A DNA stretch of 40,438 bases from an uncultured Candidatus Saccharibacteria bacterium (GTDB lineage Bacteria > Patescibacteriota > Minisyncoccia > JACQLN01 > CAZPCT01), in assembly GCA_964585325.1 (NCBI GenBank), contig CAZPCT010000005.1, forward strand, positions 1 through 40,438. The letters run 5' to 3'. A program made the translations under genes and the position numbers. Under the pieces are notes generated by a model. That model ran no database searches and was not told where the DNA came from. It was given only the letters and a program-made list of their open reading frames with translations. Below are positions 1,189 through 17,528 of the stretch, piece by piece (the first letter of the stretch is position 1; each line of letters starts with the position of its first letter).

Positions 1189-1466
1189 CTTCGTGCTACT
1201 AATCTGTGGGTCTCCTTGTAGAGAGTTTCAACCGTTTTTCCTGTCATGCTTGCCTGCCAGTTGGCTGGCTTCCTTCACGTGTAAAACCCTGGCTCACAGG
1301 GTTCGTGTACGCAGTCTAAACTCCAGGCTTATAAAAGTCAACACCCCTATCCACAACACCCGTTTTTTGGCTTATTTAAGCCATTATTAGGCCATAAATG
1401 CTCCTGAATGCAACCGGCCGTTCTGTGGGCCAACGTCAAAAAAGATGGTATGCTGAGGAGGCAAAA

Positions 1467-3392
1467 ATGGGCGCCGATATACTCACGGGACTTAACCCAA
1501 AACAGCGCGAAGCGGCTCTGTGTACAGACGGGCCCGTTCTTGTTATTGCGGGCGCCGGATCGGGAAAGACGCGGGCGCTCACTCACCGCCTCGCGCACCT
1601 TATTCATACAGGAATCCGCTCCCGCAACATTGTTGCTCTTACGTTTACAAACAAGGCAGCCGGGGAGATGAAAGAACGTGTGTTAGACCTGTTGTCCCGC
1701 GGAACACGCCTTCCTTTTATAGGAACATTCCACGCTTTTGGGGCACGCATCCTACGGGAAGACGGATTTGGGGTTGGTGTGGGCACAGATTTTGTCATTT
1801 ACGACACGCGGGACCAGCGCGCGCTCATAAAGGAACTTATGGCAAACCATAACGTGCCTAATGATAGGTGGTCTCCGGGTGCCGTGCACGCCACTATTTC
1901 TCGCGCCAAGAACGAACTTGTCACCCCTGCCGCGTTTGCCACAGGCGCAACTACGTATTATGAGAAGGTGGTGGCTCCGCTCTATGAAGCATATGAGAAC
2001 GCCCTGCGCGAGGCGAACGCGGTTGATTTTGACGACCTGCTGGTCCTTCCTGTTCGCCTGCTAAGAGAGAAGGCAGACGTGCTTGAGAAGTACCAGCGCC
2101 GGTACACCCATTTTCTGGTAGACGAATATCAGGACACCAACCACGCCCAGTATGCTCTATTGCATCTTCTGGCCGCTAAACACCGGAATCTTTGTGTGGT
2201 AGGCGACGACTGGCAATCAATCTACCGGTTCAGGGGTGCGGACTTCAGAAACATCCTTCATTTTGAGCGAGACTGGCCGGAGGCCACGGTGGTGTTCCTG
2301 GAAGAAAATTATCGCTCTAGCCAGCCAATCCTTGACGCAGCGCAGTCTGTCATTGAACAAAATCAGTTCCGCACGCACAAAAAACTCTGGACCGCGCGGG
2401 GCGGGTCAGTCAAGCCCCGTATTGTCCAGTTGGACGACGAACTAACAGAGGGGATATGGGTGCTTGATGAAGTTGAGCGACTCGTGAGCGCTTCCAACGG
2501 CCTGCCTGCGCAGGCAGGCCCCCGCACCCTTGAAGACGTGGTGGTGCTGTACCGTACAAACGCTCAGTCGCGCATTTTTGAAGAGCTTTTGGTGGGGCGC
2601 GGTATTCCGTATGCCATCATTGGATCTGTGAGATTCTATGAGCGCAAAGAAATAAAGGACATTGTGGCGTATTTACGACTTTTGCATAACCCACGGGATC
2701 TGGTCTCGTTGCGGCGCGTTGCCAACACCCCGCCACGCGGTATAGGTGCAAAAACACTTGAAAAATTGTTAGACCGCAGTTTTGACAACATGGAACACGT
2801 TAAAATACGCGCATTTGAAGACCTTCTGGAGTCGCTCCGGACATACGCAGGAACAGCATCCTTGGAGGATGTGGTAAAGAAGCTTCTTGCCCGCATCAAC
2901 TATCGCGCGTACCTTGGTGGGGACTCGGGTGAGGGCGAGGAACGCTGGGAGAACGTGCAGGAACTTGTGAGCGTTACCGCCGCGTATGGTTCTGCGTCCG
3001 CAAAAGACGCCTTGCCGACGTTCTTGGAAGAAGTTGCGCTCCTTTCTCCCACCGACGAAGTGGGCGACAGACCGGGCGCCCTCAACCTTATGACCCTGCA
3101 CGCGGTAAAAGGTCTGGAGTTCAACACCGTCTTTATTGTGGGGTGTGAGGACGGTCTTCTGCCGCACGAAAAAAGCGTTCTCAGTCAGGAGGAGATGGAA
3201 GAGGAGCGGCGCCTTCTATACGTGGGCATGACCCGCGCAAAGGAGCGACTCATTATGACGTTCGCGCGGCGACGTACGCTCTTTGGCTCTTCCAGCTCTA
3301 CCCTTCCTTCGCGGTTCTTGTCTGACATTCCAGAAGAACTTGTTGAATTTTCAGCTTCGGGAGAAGAAGCTATAGAAACCATTGAATTGTGA
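1467..3392 (+). CDS. pcrA: ATP-dependent DNA helicase, UvrD/PcrA (SF1) family
   Basis: Motifs: LNPKQREA, Walker A AGAGSGKT, LTFTNKAA, VDEYQDTN, NYRS, VLYRTN, LMTLHAVKGLEF, YVGMTRAKE. I chose the ATG at 1467 (MGADILTGLNPKQ), which is preceded by GAGGAGG, over the track start at 1398. Confidence 0.92.
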   Translation: MGADILTGLNPKQREAALCTDGPVLVIAGAGSGKTRALTHRLAHLIHTGIRSRNIVALTFTNKAAGEMKERVLDLLSRGTRLPFIGTFHAFGARILREDGFGVGVGTDFVIYDTRDQRALIKELMANHNVPNDRWSPGAVHATISRAKNELVTPAAFATGATTYYEKVVAPLYEAYENALREANAVDFDDLLVLPVRLLREKADVLEKYQRRYTHFLVDEYQDTNHAQYALLHLLAAKHRNLCVVGDDWQSIYRFRGADFRNILHFERDWPEATVVFLEENYRSSQPILDAAQSVIEQNQFRTHKKLWTARGGSVKPRIVQLDDELTEGIWVLDEVERLVSASNGLPAQAGPRTLEDVVVLYRTNAQSRIFEELLVGRGIPYAIIGSVRFYERKEIKDIVAYLRLLHNPRDLVSLRRVANTPPRGIGAKTLEKLLDRSFDNMEHVKIRAFEDLLESLRTYAGTASLEDVVKKLLARINYRAYLGGDSGEGEERWENVQELVSVTAAYGSASAKDALPTFLEEVALLSPTDEVGDRPGALNLMTLHAVKGLEFNTVFIVGCEDGLLPHEKSVLSQEEMEEERRLLYVGMTRAKERLIMTFARRRTLFGSSSSTLPSRFLSDIPEELVEFSASGEEAIETIEL

Positions 3393-4192
3393 CTACACAA
3401 GAAGAGGTCCAAAAACGTCTTTCGGCCGCAGGAACCACTCCCAACAAACTGCGGGGACAACATTTTTTGGTAGACAAAAGTATGTTGGAGAAGGTTGCGA
3501 ATGCGGCAGACATTACGGTAGGGGAGAGAGTATTGGAGATAGGGCCCGGCGTAGGAAATCTGACAGACGCTCTTCTTTCAAAGGGGGCAGTGGTGACCGC
3601 TATAGAAAGGGACACAGCGCTCGCCGCCTTTCTTGCCCGCCACTATGGAGACTCCGTGGAAGTTCACTCGCAAGACATTCTTTCTTTTGACACAACACCA
3701 CTACCTGCGCAATACAAAGTGGTGGGCAATGTGCCCTACTACATAACGGGTAAGATCATACGCAAGTTTATGGAGAGTTCACACCTCCCGCAACGCGTGG
3801 TGTTCACTGTTCAAAAAGAGGTTGGCGAGCGCACTGCCGCGCGCCCACCTCACGCCACATTCCTTTCTGTCCTAACCCAGCTTATGGCAGACGTTTCGTT
3901 GGGTCCCGTCATTCCGGCGGACAGTTTCTGGCCAGCACCAAGGGTTGATTCCATTATTCTTGTTATTGTTCCACATGGAACACAGCCAGACCCTTCGCTT
4001 GTTTTATTGGTTCGCCAAGGATTCCATCAGCCACGAAAGACGCTCATCAACAACCTGGCGCAGCTTCCAGCATATGAACGGGACACAGTTCTGGGTGCGC
4101 TGAGACAGATGGACAGAGACGAAAAAACGAGAGCTCATGAACTCTCGTTAGACGAGTGGCAAAAACTATTTCTGTCATTAAAAACCGGGTAA
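3389..4192 (+). CDS. rsmA: 16S rRNA (adenine1518/1519-N6)-dimethyltransferase RsmA/KsgA
   Basis: GQHFLVD and the SAM-binding VLEIGPGVGNLT motif, followed by VVGNVPYYIT. The GTG start overlaps the helicase stop (GTGA at 3389-3392). Confidence 0.9.
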   Translation: MTTQEEVQKRLSAAGTTPNKLRGQHFLVDKSMLEKVANAADITVGERVLEIGPGVGNLTDALLSKGAVVTAIERDTALAAFLARHYGDSVEVHSQDILSFDTTPLPAQYKVVGNVPYYITGKIIRKFMESSHLPQRVVFTVQKEVGERTAARPPHATFLSVLTQLMADVSLGPVIPADSFWPAPRVDSIILVIVPHGTQPDPSLVLLVRQGFHQPRKTLINNLAQLPAYERDTVLGALRQMDRDEKTRAHELSLDEWQKLFLSLKTG

Positions 4193-4813
4193 GCCGCTGC
4201 CCCTTATCTCTTTAGAGGTCCCAATAATTGAAATCCACGGCCCCTTTTCGTCACGCGGACAACATGTCCCGCAACAGCTGGAATTACATGTCACATGAGT
4301 GCACGCCAGGTCGGGTCCCTTTGCCAGACCAAGCACCCACCTGTCTTCCTTCACCTCGTCATACTCATACACTTGTGAAGAGACCACGCCCCCCAGTACG
4401 GGGACGAAGCGCGTGAGCCCGCCCACCAACAAGTACCACTCATCCTGCCCGGGCGCACTACTTATCGCACCACCCGGCCCACTTTCCCACGGGCGGTCTA
4501 TTTTGATGAGCCAACCGTAGACAAAAAAGTTGCAAGAACATGTTTTTTTGTCCACCACAATACCACCAAAATCGTGGTTGCCGAAAGGGTCGGAGGGAAT
4601 ATCTACGGCCTGGGTGGGCACAGGAAGCATGGGTAAAAAAAGAAGCCCCGTAAGTACCAGAAGACCAGAAAAAATGGTGAGAAAATCTTTCCACATATCA
4701 GTCTGTTCATTATACCATTTGGGCACTTTTTTGACGCGCATGTGGATAACCTTTTTTATTTCATCCCCTTTTCTCTTGCGACTTAACGCTTTTTTCCTTC
4801 GCGAAAAGTACAT
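4178..4813 (-). CDS. Hypothetical Cys-rich exported or membrane-anchored protein, divergent from the T4SS-like operon
   Basis: Very basic N-terminus, then a hydrophobic segment FLTIFSGLLVLTGLLFLPMLPVPTQA and a possible AxA-like cleavage site. Cys clusters: CSCNFF and CTHVTCNSSCCGTCC. Alternative starts exist at 4741 (MRVKK) or M40. I recognise no family. Confidence 0.55.
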   Translation of the reverse strand: MYFSRRKKALSRKRKGDEIKKVIHMRVKKVPKWYNEQTDMWKDFLTIFSGLLVLTGLLFLPMLPVPTQAVDIPSDPFGNHDFGGIVVDKKTCSCNFFVYGWLIKIDRPWESGPGGAISSAPGQDEWYLLVGGLTRFVPVLGGVVSSQVYEYDEVKEDRWVLGLAKGPDLACTHVTCNSSCCGTCCPRDEKGPWISIIGTSKEIRGSGLPGF

Positions 4814-5112
4814 CTTTTTACTACAATTTATTCGGGCATGAACGTTCTTGATAATTTCCTGTCTTTTTCTAAAACCTTCCTATATCTTGTTAATAGTTCA
4901 TAGGAAAAGTTTTTATCCTCCTTTTTATTTATAACCTCCCCATACCTTTACTAAGGTTGGTGGTGACGCCTCTTTTGAAGCGACGCGCTTGTGTCTGTTG
5001 TTAATTGCGCCGAAAAAGCTGGTCACATCCCTCTTGGTGGGCCGTCAAACAACAAGACTCCATAAACCTTCTTTTTGGAGCAAAGAAAACGCGCAAAACC
5101 TTACTAGCCAGG

Positions 5113-5121
5113 TGGTATAAT
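5113..5121 (+). promoter_or_regulatory. Extended -10 promoter element (TGgTATAAT) in front of the 12-ORF operon
   Basis: TG at 5113-5114 and TATAAT at 5116-5121, 10 nt upstream of the ATG at 5132. There is no good -35. An AAACCTT motif copy lies at 5096-5102. Confidence 0.45.
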
Positions 5122-5131
5122 TAGTGTATGA

Positions 5132-5881
5132 ATGGGAATCACGGAGGGCATGCGTACACACTCAACATCTAAAAAGACGTTGTGGGTAACCGTGGGCGGT
5201 ATCGCCGTCTTTGTTATTGGAGCCGTTCTGGGCTCCTTTTTGGTGCTTGGCGCCAAAAGTTCAGACGGTAAAAGTTTCTCGGTAAAAAATCTGGCCACAG
5301 TGGACCTCTCCCACCAAACGGTCTCCCCACGCAGTACGCCCCAGATTGAAAACTACACAAAAGAATTTTCTAAAACACTTCTTAACCCTTCAGGATGGGG
5401 CCAGCTTGGAGAAGACGCACAATTGTCAGATGCTCTGCTGACCCGGGACATGGGCCCGCTGGTGGAAGACTACATCAACAAAATCTCGCGCCTTCCTGAG
5501 AACACCTCGCTCAACATATCTCACTCAGTCCCACCCGAAACATATCTCAAAAATGTGAAGGCGTATCTGGTGGTTGCCACGGAAGTGTTTATTGAGATCT
5601 CCACCGAAGACATCCGTCTGTTGGAAAATGCGGAGGTACAACGCCACTACCAGAAAGACGCCTTGTTGGTGGAGGATATATTTGACGCTCTTCTGGAGCA
5701 GCCTGTTCCGCCGCAGTATGAGGCGTTGCACACCGAAACACTTATCTTTGTACATGGCCTTACAGCAACATTGGACACCGTGGGACAGCACAGCGCAGAC
5801 CCCGCCCGCACTCTTTTGCTGCCCGCCTCAACCAAACTGTTGACCGACCAACTAAACAGTGTCCTTGACCTCCTGCCATGA
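5132..5881 (+). CDS. Operon ORF1: hypothetical single-pass membrane protein with a predicted helical ectodomain
   Basis: One TM segment (TLWVTVGGIAVFVIGAVLGSFLVLGA) and a hydrophilic remainder. The stop overlaps the next start (ATGA at 5878). No recognisable motif. Confidence 0.6.
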   Translation: MGITEGMRTHSTSKKTLWVTVGGIAVFVIGAVLGSFLVLGAKSSDGKSFSVKNLATVDLSHQTVSPRSTPQIENYTKEFSKTLLNPSGWGQLGEDAQLSDALLTRDMGPLVEDYINKISRLPENTSLNISHSVPPETYLKNVKAYLVVATEVFIEISTEDIRLLENAEVQRHYQKDALLVEDIFDALLEQPVPPQYEALHTETLIFVHGLTATLDTVGQHSADPARTLLLPASTKLLTDQLNSVLDLLP

Positions 5882-7584
5882 AACATAGGCCCACCCTTTG
5901 GATAGCAAGCCTTGTTGTTACCGGCAGTATTGTCGGCCTGGCCGTTGTGTTTGCGCCTACGCCCATACACGAGCCTCCGTCGGTACAGGCCTCATTCATT
6001 GAAGATGCGTTGGGGGTTGGTTTTAATATTCTTGCGTGCAACGTCGCGAGCAGCTATGCAGATGAGCTGAAAGACCTTACCGACCGGGTCAAGGAGGAGT
6101 TGGGCGGCGCCTTGTGTGACGCAGGTGGTAATCTGCCCGTGGTTGGTCCGTTTGTACAAGACCAGTGCAATGAGGAAAGCGAGAGCGGGGATGGGCAGCC
6201 GGAGGAGAGCGACTTTGTTCCTGTTCACGTACAATTTGATAACCCGTTCTCTAAAGAAGTTGAGCGGCAGAAAATAGAACTAGTAAAAACACAGGATGCC
6301 AACTGTCTTAAGAAGGAGCTTTTGGAGTTTGTGAGTCAGAACATTATAAAGAACATTGTTGAAGACTCTGGTTTTATCACCAACTTTAGAGACCATCTGC
6401 TCACTGCGGGGGTGCAGGCTGAGTATGACTTTCTGGCGCAGCTTTCCCGGGCGGGTATCTGCCCACAAAACCGCAGTGTCATCTTCACGCTGATGGGCGG
6501 TGTGGACGCCGGTTGGGCGTCAAGCGACAACTCGCCCGAAAGTATTGTGCGTTGTTCACTGGCAGAAGTGCTTGATCTTGAAAATGGGGGGCTTGAGGCG
6601 TACTACGACGACTTTAGAACAGGAGGGTGGGACGCATGGCTCTCGCAGATAAACCCAAACAACACTCTTTTGGGACAGTACACCAGCGCAAAGGAAACGC
6701 GTGACGCTCTGATTGCCGCAAACGTGCGAGGACAAGAGGTAGAGGCCATTTCATCCGACGGGTTTAACCCAAAGAAAGAGCGGGTCTGTATTGAAGAGCA
6801 AACAATAGACTTGGGGCAAGGGTTAACGGAAACGTACTGCGTACGATATGAGGAGAATATTTTGACTCCCGGCTCTCTGCTTTCAGACCAGGTGGAGCGT
6901 GCGGCAGGTATTAAGTTAGACGATGTGCGTGGAGCGGACACGTACTACGAAATTCTCTATGAGGCCATCACCAGCGTTGGTGACTGGTTAGTTGGAAAAC
7001 TGATTGATGACGGACTCAGCTCATTCAACAGCACCCTTGCGCCACAACCCGCGCCGCCCGGTGGCGGGGGAGGAGGCACGCCTCCGCCAGGAAACACCCC
7101 ACCCCCTGCCGCGCCGCCTCCAACGAGCCCTCCTCCGGGAGGAGTGCCCCCGCCAGCTCCTGAGTCGCCCCCGCAACAGCCACCTGCGTCCCCACCACCA
7201 GGAGGAGGTTCCACGGATCCCATGCCGCCGCCTGTTATTCTGGGCCCCGCAGCCGCACCCACCTTCTTTTCTCAAAATTATTTGGTCAGTGTACAGGCAA
7301 ACCCCGGTGAGTTGGTGCAGTTTACCCTTTTGTTCCAGCCCCAGTCCTTCCTTTTTGGGTTCTCTGTTACTGATCCCTCGCTTGTACGGAACGTGAGGGC
7401 TGGAAACAACGGCGTTGCGGGATACCAGGCGCAGCAATCATACCGAGGGCAGTGCACGTCAAGCGGCACAGTAAATGTTGTAGCCACAGTAAACGCGGTG
7501 CGCGTCAACGAAATTTCGGGCCAGGTGAGCCCTGTGAGCACGGCGTCTCTGACCACCGCGGTTACACAGTCTCCATGCAACTAA
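5878..7584 (+). CDS. Operon ORF2: hypothetical membrane-anchored surface protein (globular region, ~65-aa Pro/Gly linker, C-terminal beta-rich domain)
   Basis: N-terminal anchor PTLWIASLVVTGSIVGLAVVFAP. Pro/Gly-rich tract PQPAPPGGGGGGTPPPGNTPPPAAPPPTSPPPGGVPPPAPESPPQQPPASPPPGG encoded at about 7040-7236. The C-terminal ~115 aa are rich in V/T/S/N. Confidence 0.65.
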   Translation: MKHRPTLWIASLVVTGSIVGLAVVFAPTPIHEPPSVQASFIEDALGVGFNILACNVASSYADELKDLTDRVKEELGGALCDAGGNLPVVGPFVQDQCNEESESGDGQPEESDFVPVHVQFDNPFSKEVERQKIELVKTQDANCLKKELLEFVSQNIIKNIVEDSGFITNFRDHLLTAGVQAEYDFLAQLSRAGICPQNRSVIFTLMGGVDAGWASSDNSPESIVRCSLAEVLDLENGGLEAYYDDFRTGGWDAWLSQINPNNTLLGQYTSAKETRDALIAANVRGQEVEAISSDGFNPKKERVCIEEQTIDLGQGLTETYCVRYEENILTPGSLLSDQVERAAGIKLDDVRGADTYYEILYEAITSVGDWLVGKLIDDGLSSFNSTLAPQPAPPGGGGGGTPPPGNTPPPAAPPPTSPPPGGVPPPAPESPPQQPPASPPPGGGSTDPMPPPVILGPAAAPTFFSQNYLVSVQANPGELVQFTLLFQPQSFLFGFSVTDPSLVRNVRAGNNGVAGYQAQQSYRGQCTSSGTVNVVATVNAVRVNEISGQVSPVSTASLTTAVTQSPCN

Positions 7585-7588
7585 CAGC

Positions 7589-9856
7589 ATGAATATTTCC
7601 TCCCGCACAATTAGGACGATGTCTCTTGCTCTTTTGACTGTGGTGGTAGTAGGTATTTTTGCCGTCCCTCAGCTTGCGGTGGCTCAGTCTGGTAGCTTTG
7701 GTGGCTCGGATATAGACGGTGATGGGATAACTGACAGCCGTGATAACTGCCCTTTTCAGAGCAATGGGCTTCAACAAGACAGTGACGAAGACGGGATAGG
7801 GGACGTATGTGACGAAGACCAAGGAGGCGATCCGGATGGGTCCACATTACTTACAGTTGACCGTGCTGCCGATGCAGTAAAAAACCTCCCGGCTCAGGTG
7901 ACGAACCTTGTTGCAGGCGCTTTGGCAAACGGCCCCATCGCAGATGCGGTTTTCAATGGCCTTGCGGCAATGATCTCGCTTCTTACTGCGTTTTTTGGCG
8001 TGTGGATTTTTGTGGGAGCCGTGCTACTCAACTGGGCGTTCTCGCTAGGGAGTCTCACTGGTTCCACGTTTGTGTTAACCGGGTGGTCTATTGCACGGGA
8101 CCTGGTAAATATGCTCTTTATTCTTATTTTGCTCCTTATTGCGTTTGCCACTATTCTCCGCTACCAAACGTATGGTATTAGGAACGTTCTTCCCCGCCTT
8201 ATTATTGTGGCGCTTCTTATAAACTTCTCTCTTTTGGGTGCGGGTATCATTATAGACATCGGGACCACACTTGGGCAGTACTTCACTACCGGCGGGGACC
8301 CAGCCATTGATGTGGGAATCAACATGATGGGTGCATTAGGAATTCAGCGAACATTCATACCGGAATGGTTTAAAGGAGAAAATGTTCCCGAATTTTTCCA
8401 AGGAGGGAAGGGGGGGTCCTTTCACGGGTGGGAGCTTTTTGCCTACGCGCTTTCTAATCTCTTCTTCGTTCTCATAACCACGTTCATCTTTCTTGCTATA
8501 GCCATTATTATGGTGGTGCGGGTGGTCTACCTTTGGATCCTTTTGGTATTTATGCCGTTCGCGCTTGCCGCGTGGATAGTGCCGGATCTGCGAAATTACT
8601 GGAAAAAGTGGTGGAGTCAGTTTGTGCAGTGGGCGTTTATCCCTGCGGCGCTCGGCTTTTTCATATATTTTGCGCTCTTGGTTGCGACCGGCTTTAATGA
8701 GTTCTTTCTAGCCAACGAACTTCGGTCTACCCCCAGTGCTGAGTTGGATCGTATTACTAACTTCTTTGGCTACGCCCCTCAGGTCCTCCTGCAATTTATG
8801 GCCGTTATTATCATTCTGCTTATGGGTCTCACACAATCAAAGAAAGCGGTGTTCGGCAGTGTAAAGTTCCTAGAAACGGCATCAAATGCAGCCACAAAAG
8901 CAGCAAAAGGATATGCTGGGAAGAAGGGGCGGCAAGCATGGGAGACGGGTGCCGACCGAGCCGTACACGATAAAGAAGGAAACAAGCGGGATTGGGCCGT
9001 TAAGCTTTCTAATGTTGCGGGCGCGCGTCACTTACTGCGTCCTGTGGTGGGGGCCGCAGAATCACATAGGGCAAATATTAAAAAACGTTCAAAGGAGCTG
9101 GGAAAGATGAGTCTCAGTTCTCGCTCTCTTTTGTATAAAACACAGGACGCTGAAGGAAAGGCGGCCACAGTTCATAGTTTTGGAGGTAAAGTTCCTACAT
9201 ATACCGAGGCTGATGATGAGGCTGGAAAAATTCCGACTGGAAAGAAGATTGGAGACTTTAACACTGAAAAGGTTCCAGGCATGACGGAGAAGGACTTTGA
9301 AGAACAGTTGGGCGCGCTCAAGGAGATTAACCTGGCAGATGACCTGCTTGAAGCTGCTCCTCAGTTTGCCAAACTTGTGGGGAAGAAGACGGCAGATGAG
9401 ATTGGTAAGGTTTTGGGCAAGATGGACATCAAGAAAGCGGGGGGCATTATCTCTTCCGCCTTCTACAATCCCGATGTCCAAGATCAGCTTTTTCGGCAGT
9501 TCCAGTCCACTGGTTCTTTAGACAAAGCGCACATGGCCGCTATGATGTCTAAAAACCCCAAGGCCATGCTTCACTTCTTAGAAACCAAGGGCCTTGTTTA
9601 TAAAAATACAGCAGATAATTTTGTACCGGCGGAGGAAGAAGTCTTTAACAACGAGCACATAAAGGCCTCTATCACCGAGTATGTGCACAGTTATATGGGA
9701 AAGAAGGTTCCTGGTGCGGGCTCTGGAGCCACGCGCACAGACGGCACTACATATGTTGGTGTTGAGCCTGAAGAAGGCGATGGAGACCGAGAGCCGCCCG
9801 AAGCGCCGGAGAAGTATGGTGAGCCTGTAGACGCCGAAGAAAGTGGGGACGAATAA
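7589..9856 (+). CDS. Operon ORF3: polytopic VirB6/TrbL-like channel protein with N-terminal thrombospondin type-3 Ca-binding repeats and a ~325-aa hydrophilic C-terminal tail
   Basis: Signal peptide ending AVAQ. DIDGDGITDSRDNCPFQSNGLQQDSDEDGIGDVCDED matches the TSP3 consensus DxDxDGxxDxxDNCPxxxNxxQxDxDxDGxGDxCD. About 7-8 hydrophobic helices between aa 110 and 430. The VirB6 assignment rests on topology and gene context only. Confidence 0.6.
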   Translation: MNISSRTIRTMSLALLTVVVVGIFAVPQLAVAQSGSFGGSDIDGDGITDSRDNCPFQSNGLQQDSDEDGIGDVCDEDQGGDPDGSTLLTVDRAADAVKNLPAQVTNLVAGALANGPIADAVFNGLAAMISLLTAFFGVWIFVGAVLLNWAFSLGSLTGSTFVLTGWSIARDLVNMLFILILLLIAFATILRYQTYGIRNVLPRLIIVALLINFSLLGAGIIIDIGTTLGQYFTTGGDPAIDVGINMMGALGIQRTFIPEWFKGENVPEFFQGGKGGSFHGWELFAYALSNLFFVLITTFIFLAIAIIMVVRVVYLWILLVFMPFALAAWIVPDLRNYWKKWWSQFVQWAFIPAALGFFIYFALLVATGFNEFFLANELRSTPSAELDRITNFFGYAPQVLLQFMAVIIILLMGLTQSKKAVFGSVKFLETASNAATKAAKGYAGKKGRQAWETGADRAVHDKEGNKRDWAVKLSNVAGARHLLRPVVGAAESHRANIKKRSKELGKMSLSSRSLLYKTQDAEGKAATVHSFGGKVPTYTEADDEAGKIPTGKKIGDFNTEKVPGMTEKDFEEQLGALKEINLADDLLEAAPQFAKLVGKKTADEIGKVLGKMDIKKAGGIISSAFYNPDVQDQLFRQFQSTGSLDKAHMAAMMSKNPKAMLHFLETKGLVYKNTADNFVPAEEEVFNNEHIKASITEYVHSYMGKKVPGAGSGATRTDGTTYVGVEPEEGDGDREPPEAPEKYGEPVDAEESGDE

Positions 9857-9876
9857 AACGTAAATCGTAACACATC

Positions 9877-10677
9877 GTGGTGAACACACAACTTCCATCC
9901 TGGGTCCAAGAAATGCCTGCCTCCGTAGAAAAGGAGGGGTGGGTGCGTTTTTATGCTCTTCCTGAGAGGTTGCGTGAGATGCTCTTTGATGTAGATATTG
10001 CCAACACAATGTGGCGGATAGGCCATCATACGTACGGGCTTCCGGCAAAAACAGTGAGTGCTGTGTCTGGAATAGCCGGGCTGGTAGTCCAGGGACAACT
10101 TCCGTTACAACAATTCGTTCCTCGTCTTATAGAAGAAGCGGGGCTTGACAGGAAAACTGCTCTGAGCGTGGCGCGGGACATTAATGAACAGATATTCCAG
10201 CCGGTGCGTGAGGAGCTGATGACCGTCCATGGGATTTCCCCGCAGGGAGAGGCGCGGGACCAGTCCGCTGAACCAGCAAACAGCCGGGCGGGGCAGATAG
10301 AAGCGAGGGAGCAGAACGCCCAACAAAAAGGTGGGGAGGAGGGGGCACAAAGAAAGCGGGATGAGTTGCTTGAGCGGTTGAAACAATCCCAAGAGGAACG
10401 GGGAGTAGATATATCCCCAGGGCCAGAGAATAAAAGCGAAGAGAGCAACTCTGGGGGGCAGAAAGGGGGTGGGGCGGCCGAGCCTAAAGCAACAACGGCG
10501 GCGTGGAACGGAAAGAAGATAGATCTCACCAAAATTCCTCCCCGCAGAGAGATGAATGGGAATGGGGACGGGAACCCCCTTGTTGCCGGGTCAAACGGCG
10601 AGATAAACGGTAGTGGCGAGAAAGAAAAGACTGTCCGTCTTAAAAAAGGTCCCGACGGTTATTGGTACGAGGTATAA
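9877..10677 (+). CDS. Operon ORF4: hypothetical soluble protein (helical N-terminal half, Gly/Glu/Lys/Asn-rich disordered C-terminal half)
   Basis: GTG start 20 nt after ORF3. It is the only operon ORF without a TM segment or signal peptide. Low-complexity tail: QQKGGEEGAQRKRDE...GGQKGGGAAEPK...NGNGDGNP. Confidence 0.55.
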   Translation: MVNTQLPSWVQEMPASVEKEGWVRFYALPERLREMLFDVDIANTMWRIGHHTYGLPAKTVSAVSGIAGLVVQGQLPLQQFVPRLIEEAGLDRKTALSVARDINEQIFQPVREELMTVHGISPQGEARDQSAEPANSRAGQIEAREQNAQQKGGEEGAQRKRDELLERLKQSQEERGVDISPGPENKSEESNSGGQKGGGAAEPKATTAAWNGKKIDLTKIPPRREMNGNGDGNPLVAGSNGEINGSGEKEKTVRLKKGPDGYWYEV

Positions 10678-10686
10678 TTAAAGTCC

Positions 10687-10968
10687 ATGCAGAATCAGTA
10701 TCAGGTGCCACAATTTATTGACATAGAGGACAAAGTGGTAGGCCCGCTCACCATTAAGCAATTCTTTATTATTGCCGCAGGCGTAGGCATTGCGGGCCTG
10801 TTGTTTATGGTGCTCCGCCTGGCGTTTGCCATAGTGCTTGGAGTTCCTCTCATTGCGTTTACCACATCACTCGCGCTGGTCAAGATGCATGGTATGCCGC
10901 TGTGGCGGTACATTGCCGCCGCTTTGAGCTTCTCTATTAGACCGCAGGAATATTTCTGGAAAAAATGA
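10687..10968 (+). CDS. Operon ORF5: PrgI-family (VirB3-like) small membrane protein
   Basis: 93 aa. N-terminal QVPQFIDIEDKVVGPLTIKQFF followed by two hydrophobic helices, the pattern I recall for the PrgI family. It sits directly upstream of VirB4, as in monoderm T4SSs. Confidence 0.7.
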   Translation: MQNQYQVPQFIDIEDKVVGPLTIKQFFIIAAGVGIAGLLFMVLRLAFAIVLGVPLIAFTTSLALVKMHGMPLWRYIAAALSFSIRPQEYFWKK

Positions 10969-11636
10969 TGCCACAGTCAACATCCACCCATCAATTCATA
11001 GATATTGAAGAGATCCGCGACGGGATCATAGTGACCAAGGAGAAAAACCTGCGGGCCGTGCTTATGGTCTCTTCCATTAACTTTGACCTTAAGTCTTCCG
11101 ACGAGCGGGAAGCACTCATCTACAACTTCCAGCGCCTGCTCAACTCTTTGCGGGATTACCCTATACAGATAGTGGTGCAGTCACGCCCTTTGGACTTGGC
11201 AGAATACTTTGTCTATCTACGGGAGTCCTTGGGCCAACAAGAGAACGAGCTGCTCAAAATACAGACCACCGAATACATACACTTTATTGAGGAGATGGTT
11301 GAGCTCTCAAATATTATGAATAAAATGTTCTATGTAGTAGTCCCATACAACTTAACGGTGGCGGAGAAGAAGGGGGTGTTGGGTAGATTTTTCAAAAAGA
11401 AAGGGGACGAGAAAGAGCAGCTTGAGATACACTTTGAAGAGGCGCGGAATGAGCTCATGCTACGCGTCACCCAAGTGGCCAGCCTGCTGGGCGAACTAGA
11501 CCTGCGGTCCATCCTTTTGGGCAATCGCGAGCTTATTGAGCTTTTTCATGGCTTGTACAACCCCGGCACAGCCTTGTCACAGGAAAATCTGGAACTTCTA
11601 ATTGCTACCGGAGACGAAGCAAAACAACCCGAATAA
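10965..11636 (+). CDS. Operon ORF6: VirB4 N-terminal-domain-like protein (N-terminal piece of a split VirB4)
   Basis: FIDIEEIRDGIIVTKEKNLRAVLMVSSINFDLKSSDEREALIYNFQRLLNSL..PIQIVVQS resembles the first ~100 aa of monoderm VirB4/TrsE/ConE-type ATPases. It ends at a TAA in the same reading frame as the next ORF. Confidence 0.6.
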   Translation: MMPQSTSTHQFIDIEEIRDGIIVTKEKNLRAVLMVSSINFDLKSSDEREALIYNFQRLLNSLRDYPIQIVVQSRPLDLAEYFVYLRESLGQQENELLKIQTTEYIHFIEEMVELSNIMNKMFYVVVPYNLTVAEKKGVLGRFFKKKGDEKEQLEIHFEEARNELMLRVTQVASLLGELDLRSILLGNRELIELFHGLYNPGTALSQENLELLIATGDEAKQPE

Positions 11637-11642
11637 ACACAC

Positions 11643-13409
11643 ATGAAACTTCCTTTTATAGACAAATCAAGTGACGAGGCGCCGGTGGAGAACGCACCGC
11701 TGATAGATCTTTTAGCTCCCCCCGCTCTCAAGCTTGACCCTTCATACGTACAGTTGGGAAACAAGCATCTACGCACACTCTTTGTGGCCGTCTACCCTCG
11801 CTACCTATCCGTCTCGTGGTTGGGGCCTGTGGTGAACCTGGACCGGCCCTTAGACATCTCACTACACATCACACCTATAGATACCGGGAAGATGCTTAAG
11901 AAATTTGAGAAAAAGGTGGCGCAGGTGGGAGCACAAATAAGTGAGAAGGCAGAGAAGGGATATGTTCGCGACCCGCTTTTAGAGACAGCTTATCAAGACG
12001 TTGAGGAGTTGCGGAACAGCCTCCAGCAAGGAACAGAGCACTTCTTTGAGGTGGGGCTCTACATCACGATCTACGCGGACAGTGCTAAGCAACTGGAAGA
12101 GGCGGAAAACGAGGTGACCACGCTTTTGGAGTCAAAACTGGTCTACGGAAAAACAGCGGTGTTCCAGCAAGAGCAGGGGTTCCGCTCAAGTCTCCCGTTG
12201 GGAGAAGACTTTTTAGATATTCGGTCCGGGCTCAACTCAGGGCCACTGTCTACACTCTTCCCGTTCGTGTCTGCCGATCTTACCTCAAACCGCGGCGTGC
12301 TGTACGGCATCAACAGGCACAACAACTCTCTTATTCTTTTTGACCGCTTCTCTTTGGAGAACGCCAATGCGGTCATTTTCGCAAAGTCTGGTGCGGGAAA
12401 AAGTTACAGTGTGAAACTTGAAGTGCTCCGCTCGCTTATGTTGGGGACGGATGTCATCATTGTTGACCCAGAAAACGAGTATAAGTACCTGACAGACGTG
12501 GTGGGGGGCTCATACATCAACATCTCTCTTTCTTCTTCGCACCACATTAACCCCTTTGATCTTCCTGACATAAGCGAGGAGGAGAGTGCGGAAGAAGCGC
12601 TCCGCTCGCACATCATACAGCTCACCGGTCTCATTAAGGTGATGTTGGGGAACCTCTCACCAGAAGAACAGTCCATCATAGACCGTGCACTCATAGAGAC
12701 ATACGCGCTCAGAGATATCACGCTTGAGTCTGGCTGGGAGGGAAAAGAACCGCCCCTCATGTCAGACCTGGCAGCGGTCCTTAAAAATATGGAAGGGGGC
12801 GAATCTCTTTCCACCCGCATTGAGCGCTTTGTAACAGGTTCGTTTGCGGGGTTCCTGAATAACCCCACGAACGTGGCGCTAGGAAACCAGCTGGTGACCT
12901 TTTCTATTAGGGACCTTGAGCCAGAACTTCGCCCAGTGGGCATGTTCCTTATGTTGCATTATGTATGGAACAGGATCAGGCGGGAGCTTAAGAAACGAAT
13001 ACTGGTAGTGGACGAAGCGTGGTGGATGATGCGTCATCCGGACGCTGCGGAATTCCTTTTTTCAATGGCAAAACGGGGGCGCAAGTACTACCTTGGACTC
13101 ACCACCATCACCCAAGATGTGGAGGACTTTATGAACAGCGAGTACGGGAGGCCAATTGTGACAAACTCCTCCTTGCAGCTGTTGCTACGGCAGTCCCCAG
13201 CGGCGATAGATGTGGTGCAGAAGACGTTCAACCTGACGGAGGAAGAGCGGTTCCTGCTTTTGGAGTCTAATGTGGGGGAGGGTATCTTCTTTGCGGGGCT
13301 CAAACGCGCCGCTATTAAGATTGTTGCCTCATACACGGAAGACCAGGTTATCACTTCTGACCCCGCGGAACTGTTGGAAATAGAGAAGGCTAAAAAAGAG
13401 ATTGTATAA
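11643..13409 (+). CDS. virB4: Operon ORF7: VirB4-family T4SS ATPase (C-terminal ATPase piece)
   Basis: LRTLFVAVYPRYLSVSWL segment, Walker A FAKSGAGKSYS, Walker B RILVVDEAWWMM, and LGLTTITQD (sensor-like). Length and gene order fit VirB4/TraE/PrgJ. Confidence 0.85.
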   Translation: MKLPFIDKSSDEAPVENAPLIDLLAPPALKLDPSYVQLGNKHLRTLFVAVYPRYLSVSWLGPVVNLDRPLDISLHITPIDTGKMLKKFEKKVAQVGAQISEKAEKGYVRDPLLETAYQDVEELRNSLQQGTEHFFEVGLYITIYADSAKQLEEAENEVTTLLESKLVYGKTAVFQQEQGFRSSLPLGEDFLDIRSGLNSGPLSTLFPFVSADLTSNRGVLYGINRHNNSLILFDRFSLENANAVIFAKSGAGKSYSVKLEVLRSLMLGTDVIIVDPENEYKYLTDVVGGSYINISLSSSHHINPFDLPDISEEESAEEALRSHIIQLTGLIKVMLGNLSPEEQSIIDRALIETYALRDITLESGWEGKEPPLMSDLAAVLKNMEGGESLSTRIERFVTGSFAGFLNNPTNVALGNQLVTFSIRDLEPELRPVGMFLMLHYVWNRIRRELKKRILVVDEAWWMMRHPDAAEFLFSMAKRGRKYYLGLTTITQDVEDFMNSEYGRPIVTNSSLQLLLRQSPAAIDVVQKTFNLTEEERFLLLESNVGEGIFFAGLKRAAIKIVASYTEDQVITSDPAELLEIEKAKKEIV

Positions 13410-13411
13410 AT

Positions 13412-14389
13412 ATGTCTGTGGCAACTGCATCAACCAGAACGCTTCCAAACCGCCCACCCGTGGTGCGTGAAACACATATGCCCGGCGAGGTTCCGCCCGT
13501 GGTGTCTGAGACGGGAAGAGACGCGGGGAAGAAAGAGGGTCATATAACGATGGTGGAGTTTGTGATAACACTATCACTTGCGCTCACCTTTGATTTAATA
13601 AGTTTTTTTGGCGGCCTTCTTGCAATTGCGTTTCTTGGCATTGATACTCACGCGCTCTCTTCAGTGGTTGAATTTTTCACGGGCGTGAATGTGGGCGCAG
13701 CTTTGGGGGCTTCTACTATTATTTTTCTTGGGAGTCTGAATATACTGGTCGCGCTAGGCTTCTTTACGTGGTACGCCATGAAAGGTTTGGGAGAAGAGGC
13801 CGCTATGTGGACAGGTGCATCTGCTCTTATTGAGTTCGTACCCGCTGTTCAAGCCCTGTTGTTCCAGAACGCTATTATGGTTTTCTTTATGCACAGACGA
13901 CATAGGGCGACTTTAGTGGAGGAGGTAATCAGTGCCGCAAGTGCCGCAGCAATTCTTGCCTCGGGCGGGGAGGCTGCTCCTGTTGTAGCGGGGGTAAGAG
14001 TCGTGGGGACAAAAGCCGCAAGCGCTGTTACCGTCAAAGGGGCAAGTGTGGTAGCGGGCAAGAAAGCCGCCGCAAGCGCTGCTGAAAAAACCGCGGTGCG
14101 TGGTGCCGCCACAGGCATTGCAGAAAAAGAAGCGGCGAGTAGTGCGGCAACACTGGGAACACCCGAAATGGTCGCGGGCCCCAGTCGCGCCCGCGCGTAC
14201 ACACAGAGCGCCAAGGACTACGCGACAGAAAATCTAAGTTCGGAGGCTCTGAAGAAGCGAGCTAAAGAAGAGATTAGGGAGCGGGTAAAACAAAAAAGTG
14301 TGGATGCGGTGGTGGACATCGGCTCTCATCTGCGTCGAGCTCCGCAAAATGAAGTGTATAATGAAGAGGAATCAGACGAGGCCGCATAA
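13412..14389 (+). CDS. Operon ORF8: hypothetical polytopic membrane protein with an Ala-rich C-terminal tail
   Basis: Three to four hydrophobic helices (VITLSLALTFDLISFFGGLLAIAFLGI; STIIFLGSLNILVALGFFTWYAM; ALIEFVPAVQALLFQNAIMVFFM), then an A/V/K/G-rich segment and an acidic end. Starts 2 nt after VirB4. Confidence 0.6.
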   Translation: MSVATASTRTLPNRPPVVRETHMPGEVPPVVSETGRDAGKKEGHITMVEFVITLSLALTFDLISFFGGLLAIAFLGIDTHALSSVVEFFTGVNVGAALGASTIIFLGSLNILVALGFFTWYAMKGLGEEAAMWTGASALIEFVPAVQALLFQNAIMVFFMHRRHRATLVEEVISAASAAAILASGGEAAPVVAGVRVVGTKAASAVTVKGASVVAGKKAAASAAEKTAVRGAATGIAEKEAASSAATLGTPEMVAGPSRARAYTQSAKDYATENLSSEALKKRAKEEIRERVKQKSVDAVVDIGSHLRRAPQNEVYNEEESDEAA

Positions 14390-14392
14390 AAC

Positions 14393-15142
14393 ATGAAACA
14401 CTTTGTATACATTTTAGTAGCCACCCTTGTTGCCTGGCCCATTGTCTCGCACGCTCAACTTGATGTCTTTACGCCTCTCTTCCAACAAAACACGTCCACT
14501 ACACGAAACGACTTTCCTCTTGACCTGGTGTGGAAAGCGCACACCAACACACCCGCGTTCTATGAAGGAAAGCCGCTTCCTACTAACGGCAGCCTGGTAA
14601 GCGTGGTGGCGCTGACCCCCACACAGAACACTGGCACGCTCACGTTCTTCTGGGAGACAGACGGTGTTTCGCTTGGCAGCCAGGGGACGGAGCTTGAAGG
14701 AAGAGGTGAAGATGTGTTTACGTTCATCACAAACCCTGTCATTCTCCGTCCACGACACACAGTGAGTGTCACGGCACAAAACCTTGCAACCGGCCACGTT
14801 TCCTCCGCAACGGTGGTGATTCCCGTACAAGACACGGAGGTAAAGGCCTATCTTATGAGTAGAGATACAGGTATTTTTTCTCAACATATTGACCGGTTGA
14901 ACGTGGCGCCCGGAAGCACACTTACGCTCCTTGCCGCACCATTTTATTTTGCAGAGCCCACGAGCGAGTTGGTGTTTTCCTGGACGTTCGGTAGAAAGCC
15001 CGTCTTTAACACTGGGAGCCCCGCGCTTCTAGATGTCTTTATCAACCCTGCAAGTGGCCGTGGCAGCCAAGACGCTCGGGTGGACGTGCGCGGTTCCCGT
15101 TCCCAGGCAAGTACTCATACCACCATCACCGTCTCACCATGA
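14393..15142 (+). CDS. Operon ORF9: hypothetical secreted protein, apparently two tandem beta-sandwich-like modules
   Basis: Signal peptide MKHFVYILVATLVAWPIVSHA. Two ~100-aa segments with similar patterns (GTLTFFWETDGVSLG.. and SELVFSWTFGRKPVF..). No known motif. Confidence 0.6.
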   Translation: MKHFVYILVATLVAWPIVSHAQLDVFTPLFQQNTSTTRNDFPLDLVWKAHTNTPAFYEGKPLPTNGSLVSVVALTPTQNTGTLTFFWETDGVSLGSQGTELEGRGEDVFTFITNPVILRPRHTVSVTAQNLATGHVSSATVVIPVQDTEVKAYLMSRDTGIFSQHIDRLNVAPGSTLTLLAAPFYFAEPTSELVFSWTFGRKPVFNTGSPALLDVFINPASGRGSQDARVDVRGSRSQASTHTTITVSP

Positions 15143-15867
15143 AAGCAGTATACCCGGTCATTATTATCATCCTATCATTGCCGGCCTGGCACGTCCGGGC
15201 GCAGGCCGATCCCACTGAAAGCACGCGTGTCCTTGAGGTAAACTATCCCGGAGGAAAACTTAACGAGCTGGGAGAGGCTGGAAAGCTGGGGCCGCTTCAA
15301 TGGGTTGAGACTATCTACGACTTTGCGTTTGTCATAGTAGGGGCGGTGGCGTTCATTTCTTTGGTCTATGCGGGCATCAGGTGGATGACCTCACGGCAGG
15401 ACGAGGGTATTAGGGACGCCAGAGACCGCATGCAGGGAGTTGTTTACGGCCTTCTTTTGCTGGGTGTCTCTGTTCTCCTTCTTAATCTTATTAATCCGGA
15501 TCTCACAAAACTACGAGAACCGCTTGTTAAGCCGCCCAAATCCACACTCCCAGAAAGTCCTGGTGGGGGAAGTACAAACGACCCTCGGCCCGGGCCCGAA
15601 GCAGGTTATGGGACCGCTTGCACCTTGGCAGGGGGCGGCACGGGGCCGGAGTGTTTACAGTACCAAAACCTAGAATGTAAACACACGGGTTATATTGGAG
15701 GAGGACAAAGTGGTCTCAGGTCTGGGACATGCGCTCTTCCTGACCAACTGGAGTTGGGGGAAAGTTGTTTGTTAAATGTGATTGACGTCTGCGCACCTCC
15801 ATTGCGATGTGTACGCGCTGAAAATTCAAACGCGCCCGCGAGTGTCGGCACATGCACTGCACAATGA
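15139..15867 (+). CDS. Operon ORF10: VirB2/TrbC-topology T4SS pilin-like protein with a C-terminal Cys-rich extension
   Basis: Signal peptide ending VRAQA. Two hydrophobic helices (IYDFAFVIVGAVAFISLVYAGI / VVYGLLLLGVSVLLLNLI) are split by the charged loop RWMTSRQDEGIRDARDRMQ. A Pro/Gly linker and an ~85-aa tail with 10 Cys follow. Confidence 0.65.
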   Translation: MKAVYPVIIIILSLPAWHVRAQADPTESTRVLEVNYPGGKLNELGEAGKLGPLQWVETIYDFAFVIVGAVAFISLVYAGIRWMTSRQDEGIRDARDRMQGVVYGLLLLGVSVLLLNLINPDLTKLREPLVKPPKSTLPESPGGGSTNDPRPGPEAGYGTACTLAGGGTGPECLQYQNLECKHTGYIGGGQSGLRSGTCALPDQLELGESCLLNVIDVCAPPLRCVRAENSNAPASVGTCTAQ

Positions 15868-16982
15868 CCATGAAAAAAAATCTCCTACTCATAACTATTG
15901 CCATCTTGGCTCTCGTTTTCGCTGGTCTTTCTGTATACGTTTTTGTGTTGCGGGAAGAGCCGAAGCCACCCCTATTTAGTGACACCCTTCCGTCCCCAGA
16001 AGAGCTTTTGGTCTCTGAGAGTACCGCCGACCCAGACGCCCCCCTGGCGCAACTCTCTGCCCGCCCCATCGCCGGATTTACTGCCACTGATGCGGGAGAG
16101 ATTGTGGTAGTGACTGGTGGAGGTGTGGTGCAGGTTTTGGACGGGACCGGTGTGGTGCTGGAAGAGCGGCCCTTGAGCCTGTCGCCTGTTGTTTCCGCGC
16201 GCGTCTCTCCAGACGGCCAACAGGTGGCGTTTGAGGTCATAAACACCAACACGTTGGAGGGTAGGTGGTACATATGGGACAGGGATGAGCCGACCGCTGC
16301 GCCCCGCGCCTTGCCCGCCACCGCCAGGGACATACGGTTCGCTCCCGCGGGCTCGCTCTTGAGAATTGAAGACGTAGATGACAGAATATCCACCCGCCTT
16401 GTATTGGACGCTGGTGGAAGAGAGACGGTTCTTGCAACCTCTGCTATTCCGGACCTGCAAGCCCGGTGGATAGACGACGAACGCCTTCTTATCACGAACG
16501 CCCCGTCCGGCATAGCCCCTGGGACAGCATATACACTCAACACACGCACACGCGCTTTCAGCCGCCTTATGGAAGGGCGCGCCGGCCTCAGTGCTTATTA
16601 TTTTGACAACACCCTTCTTTTTACAGAGACCCTCAGCACGAGCCGCCTGCGCACCGGGGTGCTTGTGGGAGAAGATGAGCGCTATCTTCCTGTAACAACA
16701 CTGCCCGAGCGGTGCACCCCACTTACAGAAAACGAACTTTTGTGCAGCACTCTTTACTCGCAAACGGGCGCGCGCCTTATGCCAGACGACTACTACAAGG
16801 GAGTGGTGACAAACCAGAGAAGTGACTTGGTGCGCATCTCTTCTACAGCAACAGCCGTTTCACTTGCGCGTGTTCCAATTGACGGCATTCATCCACAATT
16901 CTCCCACGACGGTAGGTATGTGTTTCTTATAAACAAAAACGACGGCGCCCTCTGGAGGGTCCGCCTGGGATCTGGCTTATAG
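15864..16982 (+). CDS. Operon ORF11: membrane-anchored protein with PD40/TolB-like beta-propeller repeats
   Basis: Anchor KKNLLLITIAILALVFAGLSVYVFVL. PD40-like motifs: VSPDGQQVAFEV and PQFSHDGRYVFLINKNDGALW. I chose the ATG at 15864 (ATGA overlap with the pilin stop); the track start is 15852. Confidence 0.6.
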   Translation: MTMKKNLLLITIAILALVFAGLSVYVFVLREEPKPPLFSDTLPSPEELLVSESTADPDAPLAQLSARPIAGFTATDAGEIVVVTGGGVVQVLDGTGVVLEERPLSLSPVVSARVSPDGQQVAFEVINTNTLEGRWYIWDRDEPTAAPRALPATARDIRFAPAGSLLRIEDVDDRISTRLVLDAGGRETVLATSAIPDLQARWIDDERLLITNAPSGIAPGTAYTLNTRTRAFSRLMEGRAGLSAYYFDNTLLFTETLSTSRLRTGVLVGEDERYLPVTTLPERCTPLTENELLCSTLYSQTGARLMPDDYYKGVVTNQRSDLVRISSTATAVSLARVPIDGIHPQFSHDGRYVFLINKNDGALWRVRLGSGL

Positions 16983-17007
16983 GTTACGGCCTTTCACCTA
17001 GAGTGGC

Positions 17008-17035
17008 GCCGCACGTTGTGCGGCTTCTTTGTTTT
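17008..17035 (+). terminator. Rho-independent terminator closing the 12-ORF operon
   Basis: GCCGCAC-GTT-GTGCGGC hairpin (17008-17024) followed by TTCTTTGTTTT, 26 nt after the stop at 16982. Confidence 0.7.
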
Positions 17036-17054
17036 AAACTATAGCGAATCGTAC

Positions 17055-17528
17055 CTAGAGCGGCTTTACCACAACACACCGTTCTCCTTTTTTGCCCACA
17101 CTTTCCGTCTGTACACCCTGCTCTTCAGAAAGTGTGACGTGAATGATGCGACGCTCAGATGCCGGCATCACCATGAGCTCTTTAGGGAGGTGTGATTGGC
17201 GCACCTCATCTGCGGTGGCCTTGGCAAGTGATACTAGGTACTGCTCCCTGTCTTTAAGATAATCATTAACATCAAACACAAACCCGCCAGGCTTAAAGTG
17301 TGTGTCCGTTTGTTTAGATACTATGAGCAACAGAAGGTGCTGCAGCGCACGAACCGTTTCGCCACCTTTTCCAATAAGCATTCCTACCTCTTCTTTAATA
17401 CGCACCCGCACCTGAAGACGTTCTGTGTCGTCAACAAAGACCTCAACCAAAGCGCCGGAGTATCCCATGCGCTCCAACACACTTTTTGTGATATCAACCA
17501 CTTGTTGTTCGTTCACACCCTCGGCCAT
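17055..17528 (-). CDS. jag: Jag/KhpB-type RNA-binding protein (KH + R3H domains)
   Basis: KH-like IGKGGETVRALQHLL and a C-terminal R3H-type ERRIIHVTL. Canonical position downstream of yidC. Confidence 0.85.
   Translation of the reverse strand: MAEGVNEQQVVDITKSVLERMGYSGALVEVFVDDTERLQVRVRIKEEVGMLIGKGGETVRALQHLLLLIVSKQTDTHFKPGGFVFDVNDYLKDREQYLVSLAKATADEVRQSHLPKELMVMPASERRIIHVTLSEEQGVQTESVGKKGERCVVVKPL

Follow-up and report, generated by a model that had tools for sequence, protein, structure and literature searches.

The window analysed here is a stretch of 40,438 nucleotides from an uncultured Candidatus Saccharibacteria bacterium (assembly GCA_964585325.1, contig CAZPCT010000005.1), whose genome comprises 572 kb in 45 contigs and is 98% complete. 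Within an operon of type IV secretion system (T4SS) genes, the window carries a gene at 15139-15867 (+) that an initial annotation, made from the DNA letters, had described as a VirB2-like pilin fused to a large cysteine-rich C-terminal domain. Both the map of open reading frames (ORFs) and direct reading of the sequence give one uninterrupted ORF of 242 residues, and all of its features lie on the forward strand. A predicted Sec signal peptide occupies residues 1-21 (MKAVYPVIIIILSLPAWHVRA, then QA; 15139..15201), where hydropathy exceeds 1.5. We called it by eye from hydropathy and the ortholog alignment: the N-terminal hydrophobic segment ends in ...HVRA before QA, AlphaFold2 (AF2) models place a helix at residues 4-22, and in an alignment of 15 sequences (A1) the mature N-terminus of the orthologs begins right at a conserved LEVxFP motif, after an AxA-like site. 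The window protein reads LEVNYP at this position (residues 32-37, 15232..15249, predicted extracytoplasmic); P37 is invariant and L32 and E33 are nearly so. A pilin-type helix-loop-helix hairpin follows (15292..15492), with helix 1 at residues 52-84, a loop at ~81-97 and helix 2 at residues 88-118. Hydropathy shows two hydrophobic stretches (~55-84 and 97-123) flanking a charged loop, RWMTSRQDEGIRDARDR, and AF2 supplied with the 15 sequences places helices at 52-84 and 88-118 with a predicted local distance difference test score (pLDDT) of 76-88. The outer end of helix 2 carries the junction motif INPDL (15490..15504), in which I118, N119 and P120 are invariant columns of A1, and leads into a Pro/Gly-rich linker (residues 123-156, 15505..15606; AF2 pLDDT 33-46). 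Signal peptide, hairpin and linker are thus all as initially described.

Beyond the linker lies a tail with eight cysteines, at positions 161, 172, 180, 198, 210, 218, 224 and 239; residues 1-160 have none. The tail is therefore cysteine-rich as claimed, but the claimed count of ten was wrong, and the strings quoted in its support themselves hold eight. Cysteine makes up 0.49% of residues in 28 other ORFs of the window, and given this background the binomial probability of at least eight cysteines in the last 86 residues is ~1.3e-8. We divide the tail into two units of four cysteines. Module 2 (residues 206-241, 15754..15861) reads LGESC-x7-C-x5-C-x14-GTCTA. The Gly-rich and divergent module 1 (residues 157-200, 15607..15738), with C161, C172, C180 and C198 spaced C-x10-C-x7-C-x17-C, is called a module solely from its count of four cysteines and its ...SGTC ending. 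AF2 gave a poor model from the single sequence (pLDDT 52); with the 15-sequence alignment, the hairpin alone gained confidence.

The tail has the setting expected of a disulfide-bonded domain: the number of cysteines is even, all eight follow helix 2, outside the membrane, and the genome encodes candidate oxidases, with VKOR found twice (83.5 and 49.2 bits) and Thioredoxin_4/DsbA-like proteins found twice (98.6 and 55 bits). Three envelope proteins encoded at the locus each have an even number of cysteines: the pilin (8), the product of 4178-4813 (8) and that of 5878-7584 (10). The suggestion, originally drawn from the cysteine-rich ORF at 4178-4813, of a shared extracellular redox or folding theme is thus plausible, and we infer that the eight tail cysteines form four disulfides. 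The two VKOR homologs lie ~2 kb apart on contig C23 (L025, L026), one of them in a 352-residue frame that is possibly a fusion.

Does the core belong to a known pilin family? Residues 56-118 match profile positions 9-71 of 71 of PF18895 (T4SS_pilin) with 27.8 bits (gathering cut-off 26.6, E 2.7e-6), and a six-frame scan of the genome gives the core 30.5 bits. PF18895 was also the best family for all nine orthologs tested, at 17.6-33.6 bits. In NCBIfam the window protein has no match, and orthologs match the family of the Mycoplasma integrative and conjugative element, 'Mbov_0395 pilin-like', below threshold only. Three more PF18895 genes are present in the genome: two short tandem paralogs of 129 and 123 residues on contig C15 (L001, 1348-1737 and 1830-2201, +) and a long one on contig C20 (L002, 1039/1204-2277, +; 31.4 bits). 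Because the 129-residue paralog passes both PF18895 (51 bits) and the TrbC/VirB2 family PF04956 (32.9 bits against a cut-off of 27.9), and is linked to the window protein within the genome at E 7e-5, the window protein is tied transitively to VirB2/TrbC. The short tandem genes, candidate major subunits, sit at a contig end, and their array may run past it.

The gene stands eleventh among the ORFs of an operon that runs along one strand (5132-16982) near the replication origin, and lies 1.7 kb downstream of VirB4. The gene order, VirB6-like, PrgI-like, split VirB4, membrane protein, secreted protein, pilin, anchored protein and then jag-yidC...dnaA, was kept in all four relatives compared (L021-L024), which represent two families of the order. 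Identity to these relatives is 71-75% for VirB4 and 62-67% for DnaA; for the pilin it is 37-38%, over the core only. The VirB4-type ATPase at 11643..13409 (+) matches PF19044 (3.4e-24) and CagE_TrbE_VirB (3.3e-5). VirB4 occupies two consecutive ORFs, 10965-11636 for the N-terminal part and 11643-13409 for the ATPase; since the same split occurs in all four relatives, it is ancestral and does not mark a pseudogene. The PrgI/VirB3-like protein has 93 residues, and the labels PrgI-like and VirB6-like come from position, topology and ortholog conservation, with no Pfam match behind them. Directly upstream of the pilin, here and in L021-L024 and L051, is always a gene for a secreted 249-residue protein (14393..15142, +; no family match), and directly downstream one for a membrane-anchored 376-residue protein (15852..16982, +; a weak PQQ_2 hint only). 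The stop codon of the former overlaps the pilin start (ATGA at 15139) and the pilin end overlaps the latter (15852/15864), giving translational coupling on both sides. A Pfam scan of 14 ORFs of 64-17528 recognised no relaxase or coupling-protein family and no family of VirB5, VirB7, VirB9 or VirB10 type. With virB4, PrgI/VirB3-like and VirB6-like genes, the vicinity is that of the pilin component of a Patescibacterial T4SS, which resembles the mating-pair formation (MPF) class FATA. Taken together, family match and conserved synteny with VirB4 uphold the pilin assignment; most probably, the protein is a pilin-type subunit of the T4SS itself.

Is the tail peculiar to this genome? The window protein has a match in 34 of 40 related genomes (35 of 41 with its own); these matches almost always span residues ~30-131 only, and 30 of them lie in open frames of 184-653 residues. 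All 14 orthologs that we read in sequence have a signal peptide, a mature N-terminus of the form LEVxFP...GPAxW, the hairpin, the invariant INP and a variable tail. For the twelve order-level orthologs, tail cysteines number 4, 8, 12 or 16, always a multiple of four, and the mature core has none (the one or two cysteines before the tail in L016 and L019 belong to the N-terminal leader). These tails consist of one to four copies of a 4-cysteine module of ~23-41 residues, xGxxC-x5-7-C-x4-6-C-x(4-19)-GxC; one class-level relative has five. Thus, as far as the orthologs we read go, a Cys-rich tail is the rule in this lineage and not an oddity; the initial annotation had set such an appendage apart from the canonical T-pilin design. 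The fusion itself stands. Its possible origin in a frameshift or misassembly that joined a pilin gene to a separate Cys-rich ORF is hardly conceivable, given an uninterrupted frame coupled to its neighbours at both ends and the same fused architecture in at least 12 independent genomes.

To describe the repeat we built a profile (A3) from ortholog modules only, excluding those of the window. Module 2 scores 16.8 bits, which none of 2000 shuffles reached (1000 full and 1000 with cysteines fixed; maximum 14.4), and its spacing agrees with that of the C-terminal modules of L014, L016 and L019. It is the sole match to the profile across its own genome, and matches are confined to pilin tails in that genome and in 13 of the 15 genomes searched, a single 31-residue frame being a weak exception. 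Because most of the matched tails helped to build the profile, the informative part of this result is the lack of matches elsewhere in those genomes. The window tail has no Pfam match even at E <= 10 and none in NCBIfam; similarities of ortholog modules to EB, Dickkopf_N, knottin toxin and hevein-like antifungal families are all sub-threshold, and a profile search of the PDB with A3 gave a non-significant similarity to prokineticin (best E 0.25). The proposal that the Cys-rich domain is knotted is therefore unproven, as no knottin, EB or Dickkopf model scores over threshold and AF2 models the tail with low confidence, and we treat the module as an unclassified 4-Cys mini-domain. Two matches of the tail to Cys-rich eukaryote-like proteins in a phmmer search (E ~4e-4) were repeat-driven and were rejected.

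Tail and core evolve very differently. Within one genus, core identity averages 73% whereas tail identity averages 32%; in the closest trio the cysteine columns are invariant (16/16) and other columns are conserved in 76 of 144. The window tail is 14-26% identical to other tails, no higher than to shuffled tails (18.8 +/- 3.1%). A word-indexed search among 5.8 billion proteins returned a sole close relative, P0002; searches of this type returned one and six relatives and are unfit as a census. P0002 is 73% identical in the core; its contig is syntenic, with 52% and 57% identity in the genes on either side, and its tail is unrelated to that of the window protein and has no cysteine. Consistent with a replacement at the linker, blastn against the nearest relative (L051) found similarity over 15232-15540 that breaks off inside the linker and is picked up again in the gene downstream. 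A PKD-like impression given by the P0002 tail was unsupported, and a silent reservoir of tail cassettes was rejected because the genome holds no second copy of the tail DNA. Among class-level relatives the same core carries tails with 2-36 cysteines, and tail-less members of the subfamily exist (L049, L050). A search for related loci with a narrow alignment returned only genome G001. The expectation that the extension would vary among relatives was thus borne out by tail divergence, by cysteine numbers of 4-16 and by the Cys-free swap.

Such variation could also be read as relaxed constraint and not as host recognition, the Cys modules serving to stabilise the filament or envelope through inter-subunit disulfides or protease shielding. 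Invariant cysteines amid drifting loops would fit, as would a window tail no closer to other tails than to shuffles, which neutral drift of a scaffold would give. However, the whole tail is exchanged for a Cys-free one in the nearest relative and for an M23 peptidase elsewhere, which shows that Cys modules are dispensable for the job of the core, and the module copy number varies from one to four. We consider a purely structural role very improbable.

What else can occupy the tail position? In G020 the same core carries a robust Peptidase_M23 tail (E 1e-10), and a database protein, P0005, likewise pairs core and M23 (annotated PF01551+PF18895). The tail position therefore hosts functional extracytoplasmic domains. 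The G020 locus L036 (G020:C25:15826-26640) is an array of four long pilin-core genes (438-653 residues) with four different tails: the robust Peptidase_M23, one with a sub-threshold SLT-like stretch, and two that are Cys-rich with beta-rich regions. SLT, SLT_3, M15_3 and Mx1 labels for other tails were sub-threshold only and are not claimed. In the window's own genome, the long paralog on C20 has a tail of ~200 residues that contains cysteines and a stretch, SGHYQGYKID, resembling the SxHxxGxAxD zinc motif of M15-type peptidases; it has no Pfam match. Just upstream of this paralog are one of the two DsbA-like genes, with a CPFC motif, and a small GIY-YIG-like ORF.

The conserved INPxL...NP junction, which adjoins the flexible Pro/Gly linker, would also suit a pro-protein: cut there, the hairpin would polymerise, and the freed disulfide-rich peptide would be secreted to act on the host as a signal, a toxin or a wall-binding peptide. 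Trimming at the C-terminus is known for RP4 TrbC, and wherever ortholog modules show a sub-threshold resemblance, it is to a small, secreted peptide rich in disulfides (Toxin_12, Antifungal_pept, prokineticin). Against this, all of these similarities are non-significant, the Pfam scan revealed no evident protease gene in the operon, and the INP motif is kept in the tail-less L049, where there is nothing to remove. We find such processing improbable.

How might a tailed pilin work? On balance, we lean towards a VirB2-like pilin-type subunit of the T4SS that bears a variable, disulfide-stabilised and probably host-binding tail; its polymerisation and the binding itself are putative. From the sequence, signal peptide, two hydrophobic helices and charged loop give a hairpin with both ends outside (N-out/C-out), as in VirB2 and TraA, whose termini are both outside, and this topology puts everything beyond residue ~120 outside the cytoplasmic membrane. 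That outer part comprises the Pro/Gly linker and the two 4-Cys units, with the four disulfides probably made by the VKOR/DsbA-type oxidases of the genome. Comparison shows that the tail position in the orthologs holds one to four fast-diverging, pilin-tail-restricted 4-Cys modules that keep their cysteines and are replaceable as a whole at the linker. The hairpin may then act as a constant handle for the VirB4-driven machine, either polymerised or as a minor or tip subunit among short pilins encoded elsewhere, and the tail as a variable, protease-resistant surface module that contacts the envelope of the host bacterium. Surface exposure of the tail, on a filament or stalk, and its host binding would give it the adhesin role in these systems, in which we know of no VirB5 or PrgB homologue.

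Several points weigh against this reading. On the family side, the core exceeds the PF18895 cut-off by a mere 1.2 bits. The profile comparison with T4SS_pilin and TrbC proposed in the initial annotation thus came out in favour of PF18895 and not of PF04956, to which the window protein scores 12.5 bits against a cut-off of 27.9 (E 0.18). PDB profile searches with the core (A2, A4) rank Agrobacterium tumefaciens VirB2 first (8cue, 8exh), with non-significant E values of 0.053 and 0.26, and Foldseek against the PDB returned generic helical hairpins, all at E >= 1.5, and no pilin. On the tail side, AF2 gives pLDDT 33-60 and short beta-hairpins only, so that no disulfide pattern can be read from the model; phmmer with the 93-residue tail against 1.84 billion representatives found no true homolog; and module 1 scores 1.2 bits to A3, the same as shuffles, so its relation to the ortholog modules is undetectable. 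Finally, an appendage of ~120 residues on each subunit may, for steric reasons, not fit a VirB2-type helical filament, and to our knowledge these systems have never been seen to form a pilus.

The last two points favour the main rival, an anchor or dock without a filament. Here the hairpin would be a two-helix membrane anchor or a dock at the T4SS channel, and the protein a non-filament surface protein showing its tail near the membrane or wall. G020 tails of up to 550 residues on the same core would be hard to fit on every subunit of a filament, and enzyme tails (M23 robustly; SLT, SLT_3 and M15_3 below threshold) would serve equally well if anchored. For these organisms, in which a pilus has not been observed, PMC12857230 goes no further than a 'potential to elaborate conjugative pili'. 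However, the core is conserved beyond the needs of an anchor, with (near-)invariant LEVxFP, GP, AK and INP on its outer face; synteny with VirB4 is strict; and the subfamily includes tail-less members. We regard an anchor as possible but unlikely, and continue to prefer the pilin-type subunit.

A bolder extension of the pilin-type reading, which we rate as unlikely and put forward tentatively, is that the pilin hairpin of this order is a general display handle for interchangeable wall-targeting heads: a pilin-exclusive 4-Cys repeat that binds a glycan of the host wall, or wall-cutting enzymes (M23, possibly SLT/M15). If so, the pilins themselves would be the means by which an essential T4SS gets to the host envelope and opens it, host range would be set by the tail repertoire, and pilin-fused hydrolases would replace the missing VirB1 and VirB5. 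Short of this extension, a fast-evolving, exchangeable and probably disulfide-stabilised tail on a conserved handle, at a position where relatives have a peptidoglycan hydrolase, is a concrete and testable candidate for the host-contacting part of the T4SS; the type of tail and its number of modules are sequence markers whose correlation with host range could be examined. Counting pilins by the small PF18895 domain also conceals how varied their domain architectures are.

At the outside, N-terminal end of the VirB6-like polytopic protein (7589-9856, +) lie thrombospondin type-3 repeats (PF02412, E 3.3e-8). The second gene of the operon (5878-7584, +) encodes an anchored protein of 568 residues with 10 cysteines and a long low-complexity stretch of Pro/Gly, which matches no family and has an ortholog in G001. 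The gene at 4178-4813 (-) encodes an anchored protein of 211 residues, in which we counted eight cysteines (CSC ... CTHVTCNSSCCGTCC), as Cys-rich as originally noted. By eye it resembles a 167-residue ORF of G001 (L021 6458-6961, -) with just two cysteines, located there at the T4SS operon's 3' end; BLASTP at E 1e-4 found no link between the two.

How does the tailed pilin compare with known systems? The modules of its orthologs share short, Gly/Ser/Asp-rich sequences with closely spaced cysteines with EB (PF01683), Dickkopf_N (PF04706), knottin (PF07740), hevein-like (PF11410) and prokineticin/colipase (2kra) domains; these are the only similarities found and are sub-threshold (E 0.01-0.9), the unit here has four cysteines, not 6-10, and the window tail itself matches none of them. 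FimH-type tip adhesins of the chaperone-usher pathway, with a pilin domain and a receptor-binding domain, offer a functional analogy only, in that a linker connects a variable binding domain to a conserved one for polymerisation or docking. Their folds and assembly machines are unrelated and their domain order is reversed, and tip location and binding are putative here. Closer are Agrobacterium VirB2, RP4 TrbC and F TraA, with which the window protein shares the signal peptide, the helix-loop-helix with both ends outside and the VirB4 locus. It differs from them in falling below the PF04956 cut-off, in the non-significant PDB similarity, in belonging to a monoderm, and in a C-terminus that is ~120 residues longer rather than trimmed or cyclised.

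The closest system is the Patescibacterial T4SS. A survey of 3,035 genomes found VirB2-like pilins encoded near virB4 in Patescibacteria and detected no adhesin such as PrgB in its dataset; it relates this T4SS to the monoderm MPF-FATA class, often next to dnaA and mostly without a relaxase (PMC12102498). In Southlakia epibionticum the T4SS cluster SEML1_0006-0019, including a series of pilins, is essential (PMC10633639; reviewed in PMC12857230), and Saccharibacteria-type epibionts cannot grow on the host without their T4SS, whose function has been called completely unknown (PMC11665869). The window protein agrees with the Patescibacterial PF18895 pilins in family membership over the cut-off, in its signal peptide and two-helix hairpin, in its place near virB4 in a chromosomal, origin-proximal cluster, and in having fast-diverging paralogs in the same genome (the two short ones on C15 and the long one on C20). 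The papers searched on these pilins mention neither modular, Cys-rich tails at the C-terminus nor tails that are enzymes. The published pilins are small pilins or arrays of them, whereas here the operon's own pilin is tailed and short pilins are encoded elsewhere. Three features are new here: (i) throughout an order, it is the pilin at the operon position that has the tail; (ii) its tail is built from a pilin-exclusive 4-Cys repeat, in one to four copies within the order; and (iii) a swap of the tail at the linker is documented in the nearest relative.

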